Shown here piece after piece: positions 7,967 to 53,647 of a DNA stretch of 64,000 bases. Location of the stretch: sequence record PZ386980.1; one strand, written 5' to 3'. A model generated the notes under the pieces. It had not been told where the DNA came from. It did not search any database and worked only from the letters and a program-made list of their open reading frames with translations. Source of the DNA: a phage. How positions within the stretch are numbered: position 1 is the stretch's first letter; every line of letters begins with the position of its first letter. The position numbers and the translations under genes are program-made.

Positions 7967-8158
7967 TTAGTCATAATAATCAGTAACAGTCCAAGCTTCA
8001 TTTCTATTGGACATTATTTTTGTATATTCTGCTTTAAATGCATTCCTAAGCATAGATTCAGTAACTATATGCTCTTCATTAGAAAAATTATTTCTCAGAA
8101 TATATCGTTTTATTTCAGGAAAAGTTAATAAATGCTGTCCAGTTGAATATTCTGCCAC
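7967..8158 (-). CDS. hypothetical small protein (T4 45.2 position)
   Basis: 63-aa ORF, conserved position. Confidence 0.5.
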   Translation of the reverse strand: MAEYSTGQHLLTFPEIKRYILRNNFSNEEHIVTESMLRNAFKAEYTKIMSNRNEAWTVTDYYD

Positions 8159-8168
8159 AGTTCCTCCG

Positions 8169-8176
8169 TATAAATA
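8169..8176 (+). promoter_or_regulatory. late promoter TATAAATA
   Basis: Exact TATAAATA 34 nt upstream of the ATG of the plus-strand HNH gene. Confidence 0.5.
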
Positions 8177-8209
8177 TGTTTATCACTCGCTGTATCAAAA
8201 GGATATGTT

Positions 8210-8923
8210 ATGAATTATAAACTAATTTATGAAAAGTTAATCTCTAATGCTAAATCTCGAAAACTTGATTGCTATACTGAATCTCATCACATTATACCAC
8301 GCTGTTTAAATGGCAGCGATGATGCTTCAAACTTAGTAGATTTAACACCGGAAGAGCACTATGTAGCTCATCAACTTTTAGTAAAAATTTATCCTTCTGA
8401 ACCAAAATTAATCTATGCTGCTAACATGATGACAGTTTCCACGAAATACGCTAAACGTAACAATAAAACTTTCGGTTGGATTCGTCGTAAACTCTGGGAA
8501 ATAGAAAAGAATAAAGAATTCTCCCAGGAGACACGAAAGAAAATGTCTGATGCAGTAGCTAATAAAGCAAGACTAACTTGTCCACATTGCGGTAAGTCCG
8601 GATTAAGCGGGAATATGAATCGATGGCATTTTGATAACTGCCCGAATCACCCTAATCCTAAAGTTAGACCACCGATGTCTAAAGAACACAGAAATAATAT
8701 CTCAAACGGGCTTAAAGCAATCATTCTTGAAGAAACATCCTGCGAATTCTGCGGAATGATAGGCAAGAAATGCGTTATTGCAGCGCATAGAAATTTCTGC
8801 AAGAAAAATCCAAATGGACGCAAGAAAACTGAAAAGACTGGTACTTGCGTCCATTGTGGTAAAGTTACCACTTTCGGAAATTTATCAAGGTGGCATAATG
8901 ATAACTGTAAGCACAAACATTAA
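8210..8923 (+). CDS. freestanding HNH homing endonuclease with three C-terminal Cys/His zinc-finger repeats
   Basis: HNH motif ESHHIIPRCLNGSDDASNLVDLTPEEHYVAHQ; repeats CPHCGKSG..WHFDNCPNH, CEFCGMIGKKCVIAAHRNFC, CVHCGKVT..WHNDNCKHK; opposite strand to neighbours. Confidence 0.8.
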   Translation: MNYKLIYEKLISNAKSRKLDCYTESHHIIPRCLNGSDDASNLVDLTPEEHYVAHQLLVKIYPSEPKLIYAANMMTVSTKYAKRNNKTFGWIRRKLWEIEKNKEFSQETRKKMSDAVANKARLTCPHCGKSGLSGNMNRWHFDNCPNHPNPKVRPPMSKEHRNNISNGLKAIILEETSCEFCGMIGKKCVIAAHRNFCKKNPNGRKKTEKTGTCVHCGKVTTFGNLSRWHNDNCKHKH

Positions 8924-10608
8924 TTAATAGTGGCAACACTAAATCTACCAACTTTTTCCATTTTAATATGCTGTCCATAATCCTGCGGATCATGGTCTTT
9001 ATGCGAAATTATGAAGAAGTTGGTATCCTTCAAACCATCTAAAATTTTAGCTACATTTTTAATGCCTTCAGCATCAAATGCACCGTCATACACTTCATCA
9101 AGAAATAAACAACTTATTTTAACACCTGAAACTTTTTCAGCAATATCACGCCAAGTAAATAAAAGAGCAATATCAATTCGCGCTTTTTCACCTTGACTGA
9201 ATGAAGCATAACTAAAATCTTCACGACCACGGGATTTAATTGTCTCATTAAATTCTTCATCTAATGTAAACACATAATCCGCTTCCATTATTTTAAGATA
9301 ATGGTTAATCTGCTTATTAAATAATGGAATGTACTTTTTAATAATAGCACCTTTAATACCAGAATCTTTGAGCATATCAGTCAAAATTCCTCGGTGGTAT
9401 TTTTCCATTACTAAATTAGTTTTTGTCTTAACAATTTTATCAAGTTCTTCTTGAAGCAGTGCTATTTCATCAGCATGGTCAATAAACTCAGAAGATGCTT
9501 TTTCTATAGCTGCTTTAACTTTTTTAGCTTTATCTACCGTCGTGATTAGAGATTGCTTTTTATTGCGAATATCATTTGCCAACGACTGCTGAGTTTTAAT
9601 ATTATCTCGGTATTCATCAACAAGAACTTTTAAATTATCACGGTGTGTTGAAAGCTGTTCAAACGAATGCGTACATTCAGAAACTTTATCTTTAATTTTA
9701 GAAACAACTTTATCACCGGAACTTAATTGTGACAAACAGGTTGGACATAATCCACCTTCGTGATACATATTAATGACTTTATTATACGAGTCAATTTTTG
9801 ATTTAATTAAAACTGCTTCTTGACCGATTTTATTAAACGCATCAGTCGGATCTTCATCCAAAACAATATTAACTAATCTTTCATTAGCTTCTTCTATTTC
9901 CGATTTTAGCGTTCTAGCTTCTTTTGCCAAATCATCATACATATTTTGCAGACGAGTAAGATTGTCACCCGTTAATTTTTTCTGGCGTTCAACGTTATCA
10001 TTATATATTTTAATTTGTTGGATAATACTATCTTTTTTAACATCAAGCACTTGGTTCTGCGAATTTAATTCACGTATTAGTGCTTTATTAAGCTTATCCA
10101 TTTCAGCTAATGTTCCTACCTCAAGCAGGTCTTCCACAAGCTTTCTTCGTGCAGGGGTCGACAAACCCATGAAAGGGGTATACCCTGCTGTACCAAGGAC
10201 AACAATCTGCTTGAAACTGGCATATGACATTCCGATAAGCTGTTCAAATTCTGCTTGGAAATCTTTACTGCTGGCAGATTCATTAAGACGTGTACCGTTA
10301 ACGGTGATTTCGAAAACGTTTGGTTTTTGTCCTCTTTTGATATAGTACTTTTTCTCATCATATTCCATCCACAGTTCAACTAAAAGTTCTTTCTTATTTG
10401 TGCTGTTTATTAATTGACCTTTCTTTACATCACGAAATGGCTTACCAAAAAGCCCAAATGTGATGGCTTCTAACATAGTAGACTTACCACCGCCATTTCG
10501 TCCAGTAATAAGAGTTTTTTGAACCTTATCTAATTGAATGTCAACTCCATTTTGACCAACTGACATTATATTTTTATATTTTACTCTATTAAGTTTAAAT
10601 GATTTCAT
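8920..10608 (-). CDS. 46: recombination endonuclease subunit (SbcC/Rad50-like ATPase)
   Basis: 562 aa, Walker A GRNGGGKST, long coiled coil, CxxC hook (CPTC), C-terminal signature and Walker B. Confidence 0.9.
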   Translation of the reverse strand: MKSFKLNRVKYKNIMSVGQNGVDIQLDKVQKTLITGRNGGGKSTMLEAITFGLFGKPFRDVKKGQLINSTNKKELLVELWMEYDEKKYYIKRGQKPNVFEITVNGTRLNESASSKDFQAEFEQLIGMSYASFKQIVVLGTAGYTPFMGLSTPARRKLVEDLLEVGTLAEMDKLNKALIRELNSQNQVLDVKKDSIIQQIKIYNDNVERQKKLTGDNLTRLQNMYDDLAKEARTLKSEIEEANERLVNIVLDEDPTDAFNKIGQEAVLIKSKIDSYNKVINMYHEGGLCPTCLSQLSSGDKVVSKIKDKVSECTHSFEQLSTHRDNLKVLVDEYRDNIKTQQSLANDIRNKKQSLITTVDKAKKVKAAIEKASSEFIDHADEIALLQEELDKIVKTKTNLVMEKYHRGILTDMLKDSGIKGAIIKKYIPLFNKQINHYLKIMEADYVFTLDEEFNETIKSRGREDFSYASFSQGEKARIDIALLFTWRDIAEKVSGVKISCLFLDEVYDGAFDAEGIKNVAKILDGLKDTNFFIISHKDHDPQDYGQHIKMEKVGRFSVATIN

Positions 10609-10623
10609 TTTGTATCCAATTGT

Positions 10624-11477
10624 TCACAATGAAGAAAATTCTTTAACTAAAGCCTGTAATGAAGCCTCTATTGGATATCCATTCTTAACTAACATTTTCC
10701 TAAACATTACATGTTTAGGACGATTATATGATATCCACAATTCATACAATTTATCTTTATTATCCCAATGATAGCCTTTTCGTCGAGATGCTATATGAGC
10801 TTTTCTAATCTCCGGATTTTTCCAACTAGCAGCTACTGAATTTGATATAGCTATTTTATATTCAGGTTTTGATAAAGCAGCACGAACAGCCTTTTGGTGT
10901 TTAATTTTATTTTCTTCGTTATTAAACCATTCCCTTGAAGCCATTGAAATTTTTGTTTTGTTTTAAAATTATTTAATCTTTCTTTATTATCTTTCCTATT
11001 TTTTGCTACTGAAAAATATTTTAATGCCCTTTCTCTAGCAGCATTTCTATTTTGCGGATTTGAATAATACTGTTGAAGCCTTTTTGATATTGTGTCACTT
11101 ACATCTTGTTTTATAAAACTATATTCAGCAGCTATTAAATCAACTTCGGCTAAAGATAAATTTTTATATGTTTTTCCTGACATCATTCTATTTAAAGCAT
11201 TTAGCATTTTTCCATTTTTACCTTTTGCTAATAAGAAGTGTGCTTTAAAATGATTAAAATGACTTAAATTAACTAAATTCCATGTAGATTTTAAATATTC
11301 AGGAAATATTGATTTAGGAAGCACGTGGTGTGCTTCCGTTTTACCTGGAGTTTTAACAGTTGAATTCACAGAAATAAAATTAATGTAAGACTTGGCGTCT
11401 TCTTCACTCAACGCTAATTTTTCAACTAATTCCTTTATTAAAAATTCATCATTAATGTCAAGTTTAAAATTCTTCAC
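10624..11477 (-). pseudogene. HNH homing endonuclease split across two overlapping reading frames
   Basis: ORF 10851-11477 carries the HNH motif (AHHVLP...N...H); the NUMOD-like basic DNA-binding tail continues in a different frame in ORF 10624-10944. Confidence 0.55.
11442..11461. repeat. 20-bp exact direct repeat, copy 1 (AAATTCATCATTAATGTCAA)
   Basis: Identical 20-mer recurs at 11645-11664. Confidence 0.9.
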
Positions 11478-24659: not shown

Positions 24660-25661
24660 TTACTTAATTAACTGTAAAGCTTGTTCCAGACGATCAAGAC
24701 GATTAACAGATTCTTCCCAAATCCTTTTAGCCTGCTCATATTCTTTCTGTGCTTTATTAGAAATTTCTAGAACTTCTTTATAAGCTTTTTCTAGTGCAAT
24801 AACTTCTGGACGAATTTCTATCGGTTCAGGTGAATCATCAAGATTATCCATTAGTTCCTCAAGGGTAGTTTCTTCTTTAGGAGTATTCACAATTTCATCA
24901 CATTTTTGTTGATAAATTTCTTTATCAGTAGGTGAGTACGCGCACTTTACTTCACGAAGACTAATTACAATTTTATATCCTTCCCAACCACCCATATTTT
25001 TGAAAGGATATGTATGAATACTTTTTACAGTTTCCATACAATCCAAAGCCGTCTCTAATTGATGAGTTATAGTGCTAGCAATTGAGAAAAATTTATTAAT
25101 ATTCTTTTGGTTAGCTTCTGGTGTAAAAAATTCGTAATTCACAAAAATAGCTACTTTATTTTTATCAAGCTCATATTCTTTTACGATAATCATATCAGAA
25201 GCCAAAGGATGAATTTGACGATAATCGCCATAACATAATTTAGAAGCTGATTTTAGAATTTGTCCTTTAAAAAGTCTGAAATTGCTAATCCAACGACGAG
25301 TAAAAATATTCTTAGGGTCTTCTTTGATATTAAGATGATAAGAATTAACATCACCGAACCAATTGTATCCTATTACACCTTTAGTTCGTTTAATTTCTTT
25401 CCCAAAATTACCAAGAATATCCCGATTAACCAAATATGAAAGAAGACGAGACCCTTTAAAGATTATCTTAATATCATCTTTATCTACACGGCTAGAAATT
25501 TCACGAACTTCATGAATAAATTTACTGGAAGAAACAATACTTGCATCAATACTGCTGAGCCATTGATTGATAATAGAAAGAACAGCGTTCTGACTAGACA
25601 TGGGTTTAACTTTATCATCAATAACACTATTGAATGATTTGATATATTCGTTACGAGTCAT
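24660..25661 (-). CDS. paralog family member 2 (start at MTRNEYIKSF)
   Basis: Promoter placement requires internal Met start; C-terminal coiled coil. Confidence 0.6.
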   Translation of the reverse strand: MTRNEYIKSFNSVIDDKVKPMSSQNAVLSIINQWLSSIDASIVSSSKFIHEVREISSRVDKDDIKIIFKGSRLLSYLVNRDILGNFGKEIKRTKGVIGYNWFGDVNSYHLNIKEDPKNIFTRRWISNFRLFKGQILKSASKLCYGDYRQIHPLASDMIIVKEYELDKNKVAIFVNYEFFTPEANQKNINKFFSIASTITHQLETALDCMETVKSIHTYPFKNMGGWEGYKIVISLREVKCAYSPTDKEIYQQKCDEIVNTPKEETTLEELMDNLDDSPEPIEIRPEVIALEKAYKEVLEISNKAQKEYEQAKRIWEESVNRLDRLEQALQLIK

Positions 25662-29087: not shown

Positions 29088-29807
29088 TTAGGATTCTTCT
29101 AAATGTCTTTTCTGAAAAGTTGATACCATACTACGATACGGTTCATTTGGATATCCGTGTTTTATAGCTTCCTTTGTAAATTTTCTCCATCCATATTTAG
29201 TTTCTTTCCAAAGCTCGAATAATTCATCTTCATATTGCCATATAGTTAAATGAGAACGCTTTGCAGCTTTAATTCCATTAATATGCTTTTCTTTTACTAC
29301 AGGATTGCTTAGTTTCTTTTTAATAATATTACTAACTTTTCTAACAAAAACTGGGTCCTTATATCGTTGCGAAGTTTTTATTGAAGTGTTTAATTTAGCT
29401 TCCGGCGTGGATGTGACCTCTTTCATCTTTTTCTTCATATGCTGTATATGATTAGGATTTTTCCATAAATTTATAGAATGCTTTTTGCATTTTATCCTAG
29501 TTTCATCTGCAACCTTTCCTCCTTCACCCCCGTATGACAGGTTAACACAGTTTTTTCCATATTTCAATTTACCTGCCATGATATATAATATTTCAGCTTG
29601 TACCATTTTATCATAATTATCAAAAACTTCTAAAACCGTTTTTGATAATATGTGGTCATTTGACACTTTTACACGTTCTATATAATTTCCACTACCAACA
29701 TACGAATCATTGATGTTATTAGTTATATGTCGACCATAATAGTATTTCTTAATACCTGTCTTTAAATTTAATATTTCAGTTTTATAGATAGTAAAATATT
29801 TTTTCAT
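29088..29807 (-). CDS. GIY-YIG (Seg-like) homing endonuclease
   Basis: N-terminus FTIYKTEILNLKTGIKKYYYGRH..SYVGSG fits GIY-YIG; basic NUMOD-like C-terminal tail. Confidence 0.65.
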   Translation of the reverse strand: MKKYFTIYKTEILNLKTGIKKYYYGRHITNNINDSYVGSGNYIERVKVSNDHILSKTVLEVFDNYDKMVQAEILYIMAGKLKYGKNCVNLSYGGEGGKVADETRIKCKKHSINLWKNPNHIQHMKKKMKEVTSTPEAKLNTSIKTSQRYKDPVFVRKVSNIIKKKLSNPVVKEKHINGIKAAKRSHLTIWQYEDELFELWKETKYGWRKFTKEAIKHGYPNEPYRSMVSTFQKRHLEES

Positions 29808-32888: not shown

Positions 32889-33434
32889 TCACTTTGAAAT
32901 CATAGTTGGAATAACAGAATCAAGATAAGTCTTTAGTGCAATAGCTTCGTCTTTGGTAAATGTAATGATATGTGATCGAAAATCGTCAATTTGACGAATA
33001 GATACTACATCTCCCTCTTCATAGCATTTTGACACATTTAAAATAGTTTCATCATTCTGATTGCAAGCGTTAGTAATAATAGCATTGCAATTTTTAAACC
33101 ATTTTAAACTATGTTTTCTTTCATTAGAATAATAAAAATATTTAATCTTATCTATAAAACTATCCCAATGGATAACTGATAAGCATATTGACTCGCTTTC
33201 AATATTAAATCCTGGGCATGAAGAATAAAAATGAATTTTATGCTCATCATTAATGCTTACAATTTTATCAGTATAAGGATTTTCAATTTTGGTTAAATGA
33301 ATGATTTCACTAGGCGTAAAATACAGCATATCGTCTTCTTGTGTCAAACGATACATATTATTTACTTTTTCTATAGCCAATTCACCAAAAAGTGAACTAA
33401 CTTCTAATACTAATCGTTTCGCCTCGCTCATCAT
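32889..33434 (-). CDS. hypothetical protein, paralog B of tandem pair
   Basis: Shared motifs with 32361-32882. Confidence 0.55.
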   Translation of the reverse strand: MMSEAKRLVLEVSSLFGELAIEKVNNMYRLTQEDDMLYFTPSEIIHLTKIENPYTDKIVSINDEHKIHFYSSCPGFNIESESICLSVIHWDSFIDKIKYFYYSNERKHSLKWFKNCNAIITNACNQNDETILNVSKCYEEGDVVSIRQIDDFRSHIITFTKDEAIALKTYLDSVIPTMISK

Positions 33435-33958: not shown

Positions 33959-34162
33959 TTACACTCTCGTATTATGATCGATAATTTCATCAAGAAACAT
34001 ATCTAACGCTTCTATAGCATTATCCACTTTAGTTTCAAAGTCTTTAATGCCTTTATTCGAAATACCCGATGAATACCAAGCAAAGTCAATCAGCTCTTCA
34101 TCTGCTTTACGAATTGAAGCCACTAATTCCTTGATTTTATCTGCTTGCTCTATACTAATCAT
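33959..34162 (-). CDS. hypothetical protein (start at internal Met, ATGA overlap with upstream stop)
   Basis: ORF 33959-34198 trimmed to [13 protein letters not shown]. Confidence 0.4.
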   Translation of the reverse strand: MISIEQADKIKELVASIRKADEELIDFAWYSSGISNKGIKDFETKVDNAIEALDMFLDEIIDHNTRV

Positions 34163-48009: not shown

Positions 48010-48660
48010 TTATATATTGTTAATTTGATTTAGAATTCTTTTTGCTTGAGTATGACTTACGCCAATATGCTTAGCATATTTAGATAATTCACCACGCTTA
48101 GAAAAATCATATAATTTAGAAATTTCTATTCTTCTTTTTCTTTCATCCGCAGAAACTTTTGCTTCGTTTGCTTTTGCTATTTTACGTTTAGCTTCTTGAG
48201 AATGAGTTTTACCAGCAAAGCCATTCTTCATTAATCCATTTGAAGACCATCCTTTTAATTTTCCGTTAGAATGTGCCTTTTTAACACCCAATGAAATTAA
48301 TTCGCGCTGCTGATCTGTCATAGGATAATTATTTATATGATCCCATCCACCTTCACCGCCAAGTTTTAAATTATACACATCTGGTCTATTTAAAAACTCT
48401 TCTGTAACAATATTTTTCTCGGCTTCAAGCATAGATTCTTTATCATCAAAATACTCTAATATTTCTTTAGAAAAATTTTCTATACCATATTTATCTTGGG
48501 CTCTTTTTAATAATTTACCAGAACCCATATATCCATCATCTAAATTTTCGGTAGAATGCACACCAATATAAATTTTATTATTAATTTTATTTGTTATTTT
48601 ATAAAGATAAAAATGCATATCAGTCCCTAATAAAGAACTGAGCGTCTCACGACGAGTCAT
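48010..48660 (-). CDS. segB: GIY-YIG homing endonuclease (SegB-like) embedded in tRNA cluster
   Basis: 216 aa; FYLYKITNKINNKIYIGVHS...GYMGSG GIY-YIG motif; basic C-terminal tail; ATG 5 nt downstream of tRNA-Gly. Confidence 0.75.
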   Translation of the reverse strand: MTRRETLSSLLGTDMHFYLYKITNKINNKIYIGVHSTENLDDGYMGSGKLLKRAQDKYGIENFSKEILEYFDDKESMLEAEKNIVTEEFLNRPDVYNLKLGGEGGWDHINNYPMTDQQRELISLGVKKAHSNGKLKGWSSNGLMKNGFAGKTHSQEAKRKIAKANEAKVSADERKRRIEISKLYDFSKRGELSKYAKHIGVSHTQAKRILNQINNI

Positions 48661-53195: not shown

Positions 53196-53647
53196 TATGC
53201 CCCCTTAAAGCCAAGAGCTCGTAATCCATCTTCTGTTAGAATTCTAAATTTTATTCCACGCTTTTCAGCTAAAGATTGTGCTGCTTTCCATTTGTCAGTG
53301 TTCACAGACCAGGTATAAATTTCATTCATAAATCTTTTCTTCGCTGCAGTTGTTAGATGTGCTGGTTTAACTGGTGGTTGTGTTTCTTTTTTAGGTTTTA
53401 TTTCAATAAAAAATTCTTGTCCAGAAGAATCTTTCATCCAAATATCCATGAAGTATCTACGTTTTTTCCCTTCGGCATTACAAAAATAAGGAATTACTGC
53501 TGTTTCACTACCCCATGCAATAATTTCTGGATTTTTATCTAACCATTCAAAAAAGAATTTTTCCCAATTTGATCTATACGTAATTTTTTTAGGGTCACCT
53601 CTATATTTTGATATATTTTTAGGAACCCATTTTCCAGAATATGCCAT
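53195..53647 (-). CDS. 4: head completion protein
   Basis: 150 aa; late promoter upstream. Confidence 0.8.

Follow-up and report, generated by a model that had tools for sequence, protein, structure and literature searches.

We conclude that the plus-strand open reading frame (ORF) at positions 8210-8923 of the window, i.e., of the whole 64,000-nucleotide stretch of phage DNA analyzed here (sequence record PZ386980.1), is probably a free-standing HNH homing endonuclease gene, a self-contained cassette of approximately 780 bp that lies antisense between genes 45.2 and 46 of a Tequatrovirus and moves by the homing mechanism proposed below. The ORF begins with an ATG and encodes 237 aa, and the 2-kb stretch around it is 100% identical to RB51 and RB68, with each window position equal to the RB51 record position minus 23,751. 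It corresponds to RB32ORF054w/RB51ORF057 by RefSeq annotation, and its product matches PHROG 655 "homing endonuclease" with E = 2e-68. The reading of RB51ORF057 as a homing endonuclease gene is correct and is not new, since the gene is annotated in GenBank/RefSeq (RefSeq label "homing endonuclease, similar to mobB") and was already among the mob-like HNH genes counted by Petrov et al. 2010 (PMC2993671), who reported two mob-like HNH genes in RB32 and one mob-like plus one other HNH gene in RB51. It is a textbook case in which the existing annotation is confirmed. The new elements are the homology of its zinc fingers to those of I-TevIII, a bounded divergent tract in gene 46, and the conservation of site, orientation, and promoter across genera. 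In the literature searched, no paper names RB32ORF054w or RB51ORF057, and no functional, biochemical, or genetic study of the gene was found.

RB51ORF057 diverges from gene 45.2 (7967-8158, minus strand) and converges on gene 46 (8920-10608, minus strand), which encodes a Rad50/SbcC-like recombination nuclease subunit. The TAA of RB51ORF057 lies at 8921-8923 and that of gene 46, read as TTA on the plus strand, at 8920-8922, so that the two stop codons share 2 bases within the TTAA at 8920-8923 and the two genes overlap by 4 nt. The convergence on gene 46 with overlapping stop codons had been described in an initial annotation made from the letters of the window, and it holds. The same annotation had called this the only plus-strand gene in more than 50 kb of minus-strand early genes. 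By the RB51 annotation, RB51ORF057 is indeed the sole plus-strand feature from record position 25181 to 77398 (i.e., to window position 53,647), and every other plus-strand ORF there that reaches 100 aa is nested within a larger minus-strand gene; the description of the block as purely early does not stand, for it also includes the late genes e, 2, 3, and 4. As for the span of 8160-8923 initially given to the gene, the ORF is real and starts at 8210, and the first 50 nt of that span take in the upstream promoter region. No intrinsic terminator was found on the plus strand after RB51ORF057 before position 11317; therefore, late transcription would continue into gene 46 in the antisense direction. 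A second HNH gene is also found beside gene 46 in the same window, and it is frameshifted.

The N-terminal 100 residues (8210-8509, plus strand) form a Mob-type HNH nuclease domain, as judged by identity to MobB, MobC, and RB3 MobE and by an AF2 model of the whole protein with a mean pLDDT of 95. The beta-beta-alpha-metal core spans residues 22-55 and holds H26, H27, N41, and H50, and the model places strands at 24-27 and 42-45 followed by a helix at 47-60. A database search retrieved 2309 homologues of the RB51ORF057 protein, and in a sample made up of the best 120 of these plus the query (121 sequences), E24, H26, H27, P30, G35, N41, H50, and H54 are invariant. In a profile search with the family, residues 20-55 matched three known HNH cores, namely, those of McrA (6ghc), a group II intron maturase (6me0), and Cas8-HNH (8w1p). 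By its core residues and its fold, then, the domain belongs to the HNH, or His-Me finger, nucleases. In BLASTP searches, the N-terminal ~125 aa retrieved T4 MobB at 44% identity (E = 1e-29, over the N-terminal 126 aa), T4 MobC at 37% (E = 7e-23), and RB3 MobE at 36% (E = 5e-23), and this shared nuclease domain points to membership in the Mob type. The Pfam HNH model (PF01844) scored below its gathering threshold (17.0 versus 21.4 bits, E = 0.0068); the Mob lineage is divergent from the Pfam seed. The matches retrieved from Pfam and NCBIfam (HNH, Lar, and IscB) were all sub-threshold and showed nothing beyond the HNH core. Within this domain, H27 would serve as the general base, the metal would be bound by H26 and H50, and N41 would be the structural asparagine.

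Following the nuclease, the AF2 model predicts a helix at residues 106-117, a beta-beta-alpha finger, a second helix at residues 158-169, and two more beta-beta-alpha fingers. The first helix corresponds to a NUMOD3-like stretch, FSQETRKKMSDAVA, at residues 104-117 (8519-8560, plus strand), and the second to another such stretch, MSKEHRNNISNGLKA, at residues 156-170 (8675-8719, plus strand), the latter being assigned to NUMOD3 by its pattern alone. The pattern S-x-E-x-[RK]-x-x-[MI]-S occurs in both helices and is NUMOD3-like. PF07460 is present in many homologues of the RB51ORF057 protein, and in one of them (P0025) the stretch equivalent to helix 1 matched Pfam NUMOD3 only below threshold (E = 0.023); for the RB51ORF057 protein itself, the Pfam search reported no NUMOD3 match. 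Zinc finger 1 (8573-8644, plus strand) has the ligands C124-x2-C127-x12-H140-x3-C144 and a predicted beta-beta-alpha fold, zinc finger 2 (8735-8803, plus strand) reads C178-x2-C181-x11-H193-x3-C197 and aligns with finger 1 of I-TevIII, and zinc finger 3 (8840-8911, plus strand) reads C213-x2-C216-x12-H229-x3-C233 and aligns with finger 2 of I-TevIII. The ligands of finger 3 are at least 90% conserved across the 121 homologues. Fingers 2 and 3 together match the finger pair of RB3 I-TevIII with 38% identity over 63 residues (E = 8e-8). In I-TevIII, two CX2CX12-13HX3C fingers bind zinc and are required for DNA binding and dimerization (PMC1865063), and the tandem fingers found here, with spacers of 12, 11, and 12 residues, appear to be of this I-TevIII type, being homologous to I-TevIII residues 207-264.

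Because the nuclease domain matches Mob enzymes and fingers 2 and 3 match I-TevIII, the protein is, on these alignments, a mosaic, its nuclease being of the Mob type and its finger array of the I-TevIII type. Additionally, stretches of the helix 1 and finger 1 part have matches among Seg-like GIY-YIG endonuclease genes, which come from phages of Aeromonas, Vibrio, and Stenotrophomonas. Whole-chain structure searches with the RB51ORF057 protein gave no informative match. With respect to the domains that had been proposed from the letters of the window, the N-terminal HNH motif is borne out by H26, H27, N41, and H50, which are invariant in the 121 homologues and align with those of solved HNH nucleases, and the proposed relationship to Mob-type endonucleases is borne out by the alignment to T4 MobB. 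All three of the proposed C-terminal fingers are likewise present, each with a glycine after its second cysteine; the interval of 8-11 residues that had been given after that glycine is too short at its lower end, the actual interval being 10-11.

We compared the region with T4-type genomes in an 11-genome alignment, in which identity ends at 8152/8153 and resumes at approximately 8934. The inserted cassette (8153-8933, plus strand) thus takes the place of the spacer of T4, where 55 nt separate the start of gene 45.2 from the stop of gene 46. On the minus strand, the replaced T4 spacer contains a MotA-type middle-promoter motif, consisting of aTGCTTTA, 11 nt, and TATAAT. At the left junction, the ATG of T4 gene 45.2 is exchanged in carriers for a GTG plus an extra alanine codon, and the Shine-Dalgarno complement TTCCTCC is retained; at the right junction, the C-terminus of gp46 reads ...FSVATIN* versus ...FTVMV* in T4. 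Of 590-600 T4-like records, approximately 60 carry the gene, as judged by their covering the whole 2-kb query. Insert-free alleles are therefore the majority, with T4 and about 90% of the roughly 600 related records having the 55-nt spacer. RB51ORF057 is free-standing between conserved genes and patchy among close relatives, a combination by which Mob-type genes are recognized. The initial annotation had read the gene as a mobile homing endonuclease insertion beside the recombination nuclease gene, and both of the comparisons that could have overturned this reading, i.e., the search for insert-free alleles at the 45.2-46 junction and the alignment of the HNH catalytic residues, came out in its support.

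The right flank of the cassette is where carriers and non-carriers part. The 3' end of gene 46 (8934-9199, minus strand), comprising approximately its last 90 codons, is divergent and co-segregates with the endonuclease gene, which makes it a putative co-conversion tract and putative target region. We aligned RB51, five carriers, and five non-carriers over approximately 14 kb; from 8934 to 9175, the identity to RB51 is 95.9-96.3% for carriers and 76.4-80.2% for non-carriers. Elsewhere the two groups are equally close to RB51, at 96-99% on the left side and across the remainder of gene 46, and at 93.5-98.5% further right. The left flank (45.2 and rpbA) has no carrier/non-carrier divergence in this 14-kb alignment. 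Outside the tract, the carrier backgrounds are mosaic, with different non-carriers resembled in different bins. Between RB51 and T4, mismatches crowd the interval 8934-9199, beyond which there is none before 9511; at the codon level, codons 495-556 of gene 46 hold 17 nonsynonymous and 12 synonymous differences, versus 9 nonsynonymous and 25 synonymous over the first 495. When 8840-9180 was used to query the database, 63 records came back with at least 90% identity, and the other 995 of the 1058 matching records fell below 90%; non-carrier Tequatroviruses among the sampled rows lie at 77.6-80.9% to this query. A flank near the putative target hence differs between carriers and non-carriers, which is another mark of Mob-type genes. 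The tract looks like a co-conversion or immunity tract, with the gene apparently accompanied in its transfer by a piece of approximately 265 bp from a diverged allele of gene 46. The tract could also be the product of an old recombination event with a diverged donor, rather than of ongoing homing. Given that the divergent tract is linked to carriers, the 3' end of gene 46 is the likely target region, in the sense of a region deduced from divergence rather than a mapped site.

The arrangement extends beyond Tequatrovirus. Orthologues lie between 45.2 and 46 (both on the minus strand), themselves in plus orientation, in Dhakavirus KIT01, phage F2, and Klebsiella phage Phi_KR8, and at the same site and in the same orientation in Pseudotevenvirus Lw1, where the gene is annotated "mobE", and Klebsiella phage Earwig_ER32. 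Whole-protein identity is approximately 60% in the closer group of orthologues, and the identity of the finger region is approximately 56-62% in KIT01 and Phi_KR8 and 37-41% in Lw1 and Earwig_ER32. At least four named genera have the gene at this site, in this orientation, and with the promoter box. The position of the 3' end of the orthologue relative to gene 46 ranges from -5 to +14 nt in terms of overlap; because the overlap length varies in this way, the overlap itself is not constrained.

The promoter box in question is a T4-type late-promoter box, TATAAATA, at 8169-8176 on the plus strand. Such a box had been reported in the initial annotation at a distance of 34 nt; it is present, with 33 nt between box and ATG, and its function as a promoter is deduced from its form and place. 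The TATAAATA octamer is not enriched across the 64-kb window, where 13 copies were found versus 10.8 expected, and therefore the promoter claim rests on position and conservation. With regard to position, simple arithmetic from the observed density gives a chance of approximately 0.005 that one octamer on the right strand falls in the chosen 51-nt spacer, and genes 53 and 9 of the window have plus-strand boxes in a similar upstream position. With regard to conservation, the exact TATAAATA is found 33-45 nt upstream of the ATG in RB51, KIT01, F2, and Phi_KR8, and the sequence at the box position is CTAAATA in Lw1 and TTAAATA in Earwig_ER32. The case for a late promoter is stronger because the exact octamer has persisted in front of orthologues whose protein identity is only about 60%. 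We infer that the promoter is part of the cassette and is used, and this conservation across orthologues is its best support. Between the box and the ORF lies a 5' leader (8177-8209, plus strand) with a conserved GTTTATCAnTCGCTGTATCAAA and an AAGGA ribosome-binding site at 8199-8203, 6 nt before the ATG of RB51ORF057; the leader, too, is kept across the ~60%-identical orthologues. A regulatory RNA structure in the 5' leader was considered and rejected, as the predicted folding energy of -7 kcal/mol (z = -0.72) is not significant. An operator of the I-TevI style was likewise rejected: the best local score between the promoter region and the putative target was 9, with a shuffle mean of 9.4, and the promoter region, being without similarity to the putative target, therefore gives no sign of such an operator.

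From these observations, the following course of homing is proposed. Late in a mixed infection, the gene would be transcribed from its own gp55-dependent TATAAATA promoter, and the array of fingers and helices of its product would bind the insert-free allele of a co-infecting relative. The HNH domain would then nick or cut this allele at the 45.2/46 junction or no more than approximately 265 bp away from it, with the 3' end of gene 46 as the most probable place, and recombinational repair from the carrier would copy the endonuclease gene along with the recoded 3' end of gene 46. Carriers would be shielded from self-cleavage by the recoded tract. The mode of action may be a nick, as with MobE, or a double-strand break made by a dimer, as with I-TevIII. 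Catalysis, the exact target, the choice between nick and double-strand break, dimerization, and promoter use are all parts of this scheme that we infer by analogy to T4 MobE and RB3 I-TevIII.

A rather unlikely alternative is that the gene encodes a resident and effectively domesticated nuclease, one that has been inherited vertically for a long time, that excludes the markers of co-infecting relatives, and that is no longer spreading. That at least four named genera keep the gene at one site, in one orientation, and with this promoter, at finger-region identities down to 37-41%, is what one might expect of such a gene, as is strong purifying selection: RB51ORF057 is under purifying selection, with 23 synonymous versus 6 nonsynonymous polymorphic codons over 231 codons in six carriers, for a pN/pS of approximately 0.07. 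Nevertheless, only about 10% of Tequatrovirus records are carriers, the carriers examined span several species (RB51, RB32, aplgate, and ecombl75), and their mosaic backgrounds match non-carriers outside the 265-bp tract, which fits lateral movement. We would like to note that domestication overlaps mechanistically with homing and that sequence alone hardly tells the two apart. It is also conceivable, if doubtful, that the lineage has become more than a selfish element, such that a long-lived, site-locked cassette in at least four named Straboviridae genera would now regulate the recombination nuclease operon by way of its late antisense transcription and the rebuilt start of 45.2, with the fingers dimerizing the protein and the gene 46 of competitors being broken as an exclusion weapon.

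That most lineages lost an ancestral gene through repeated deletion, and that the presence/absence pattern arose in this way and not by insertion through homing, we regard as improbable. The arrangement is widespread in Straboviridae, so the ancestor could have carried the gene; nevertheless, deletion would not give a sharply bounded and approximately 20%-divergent tract at the 3' end of gene 46 that is confined to carriers, and the insert-free alleles have a well-formed spacer with its MotA-type middle-promoter motif rather than a scar. Least probable of all is that RB51ORF057 is a decaying or dead relic like T4 I-TevIII, or that it acts only by binding DNA as a regulator or by supplying antisense RNA to gene 46. 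T-even phages do often carry defunct endonuclease genes, the other HNH gene beside gene 46 being a frameshifted example, and late transcription of the plus strand would yield RNA antisense to gene 46. Nevertheless, the ORF is intact and full-length in all six of the Tequatrovirus carriers examined, all of its catalytic and zinc-ligand residues are intact, and the low pN/pS applies across the whole ORF including the nuclease domain.

The homing reading, which we prefer, makes RB51ORF057 an example of the reshuffling of homing endonuclease domains, with a Mob nuclease, I-TevIII-type fingers, and NUMOD3-like helices joined in one chain and with matches to Seg-like GIY-YIG genes. It is also an example of an endonuclease gene that would bring its own promoter, and for which the start of a neighboring gene was rebuilt, upon insertion against the local direction of transcription. 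The bounded recoded tract in gene 46, an essential gene for a Rad50-like nuclease subunit, marks the probable region of the cut, and the approximately 265 bp that it spans constitute a concrete and testable target prediction for an uncharacterized enzyme.

Among known systems, the T4 genes MobB, MobC, and MobE are similar to RB51ORF057 in that their N-terminal nuclease domains are homologous and in that they sit between conserved genes. The T4 Mob genes are also unevenly distributed among close relatives and adjoin a tract in a conserved gene that is polymorphic between carriers and non-carriers; the gene 46 tract has its counterpart in the polymorphisms of nrdB that surround the site nicked by MobE (PMC2790892), and MobE is the only one of the three with mapped activity (Wilson & Edgell 2009, PMC2790892). 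The C-terminal DNA-binding region of RB51ORF057, in contrast, has no relationship to the C-terminal halves of MobB and MobC, in which CCHC fingers are missing. The T4 mob genes are co-oriented with their neighbors, and most are without a promoter of their own or have middle promoters (PMC2988022), whereas RB51ORF057 is antisense, has its own late-promoter box, and is adjacent to gene 46 and not to nrdB.

RB3 I-TevIII resembles RB51ORF057 in its catalytic residues and in its fingers. Its catalytic residues H26, H27, N39, and H48 (Robbins et al. 2007, PMC1865063) have almost the same positions as H26, H27, N41, and H50 of RB51ORF057, and the two proteins have in common the CX2CX12-13HX3C finger motif and a homologous tandem finger pair; a BLASTP comparison of the two nuclease domains, on the other hand, returned no alignment. 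RB51ORF057 differs in having three fingers instead of two, in its NUMOD3-like helices, and in being free-standing, whereas I-TevIII is located inside the nrdB group I intron. Since the gene is intergenic between 45.2 and 46, it is not an I-TevIII orthologue, and only the finger module is common to the two. Dimerization and a double-strand break with 2-nt 3' overhangs have been demonstrated for I-TevIII only.

In its orientation against the surrounding transcription units, RB51ORF057 is like segD, which stands alone in T4 as an antisense homing endonuclease gene; no promoter has been identified for it, and it is considered barely expressed (PMC2988022). The product of segD is, however, a GIY-YIG enzyme and its gene is located among late genes, whereas RB51ORF057 encodes an HNH enzyme, lies in a mostly early/middle minus-strand block, and has a conserved late-promoter box. 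With segD as the sole antisense case in T4 and no promoter identified for it, an antisense gene with a late promoter of its own is unusual in comparison with T4, and it is not a new kind of element.

At the 45.2/46 position, the convergent endonuclease ORF (8210-8923, +) and gene 46 (8920-10608, -) differ among carriers at their shared 3' junction. We compared positions 8896-8935 of RB51 with the equivalent positions in five other aligned carriers, including RB32, and found RB51 to be unlike all five at the extreme 3' ends of both genes. In RB51, the endonuclease ends in ...CKHKH* after 237 aa, its gene overlapping gene 46 by 4 nt, whereas in the five other carriers it ends in ...CKYKPS* or ...CKYKPN* after 238 aa, with an 8-nt overlap. 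Likewise, gp46 ends in ...SVATIN* in RB51 and in ...SLAKIS* in the five others; RB68 matches RB51, being identical across the 2-kb query. The junction of the two genes has been remodelled at least twice. Further into gene 46, a third allele of the 3' end (the equivalent of 8934-9175) occurs in the non-carrier phage W143. It shows 76% identity to RB51 and differs from T4 as well, yet some of its residues (AEKVSGVK) are of the carrier type. Even in the absence of the endonuclease gene, this part of gene 46 is a hot spot of recombination.

The gene 46/46.1 interval contains another Mob-like HNH endonuclease gene (10624-11477, -; PHROG 655, E = 4e-36). Because this gene adjoins the 46.1 side, HNH genes lie at both ends of gene 46 in RB51 and in phage Aplg8. 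The Aplg8 copy is intact (284 aa) and otherwise identical to that of RB51; set against it, the RB51 copy lacks 1 nt near 10949/10950 and is thereby split into two ORFs (10851-11477 and 10624-10944, both -). This 1-nt loss may be real, making the RB51 gene a pseudogene, or it may be a sequencing error in a homopolymer. RefSeq carries no annotation over this stretch, and the locus tags 059 and 060 are absent. The second endonuclease ORF begins with VKNFKL (11460-11477, -), the same six residues with which T4 gp46 opens (VKNFKLNRV...), and RB51 gp46 itself begins with MKSFKL (10591-10608, -). Judging from these sequences, the original start of gene 46 seems to have been captured by the second HNH insertion, with the first codons duplicated.

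Antisense to the endonuclease ORF at 45.2/46 lies a MotA-type middle-promoter-like motif (8694-8718, -; ATTGCTTTA, 13 nt, TATTAT). This single motif match is a candidate that might substitute for the displaced T4 middle promoter of 45.2/rpbA/45.

Elsewhere in the window there are two more annotated endonuclease genes: the seg-like RB32ORF093c in the nrdC.9/nrdC.10 interval (29088-29807, -) and RB51ORF142, annotated as a homing endonuclease, within the tRNA cluster (48010-48618, -). RefSeq names both mobD.1 (32889-33434, -) and mobD.4 (33959-34162, -) 'molybdopterin-guanine dinucleotide biosynthesis protein MobD', which looks like a name-collision error, since 'mob' in T4 gene names stands for mobility.

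Finally, parts of the NUMOD3-like helix 1 and the first CCHC finger of the 45.2/46 endonuclease (query residues 1-51) are also matched by annotated Seg-like GIY-YIG endonuclease genes, for example in Aeromonas phage Aes508, Vibrio phage nt-1 (segD) and Stenotrophomonas phage Ps15. These matches indicate shuffling of DNA-binding modules across nuclease families, here HNH and GIY-YIG.
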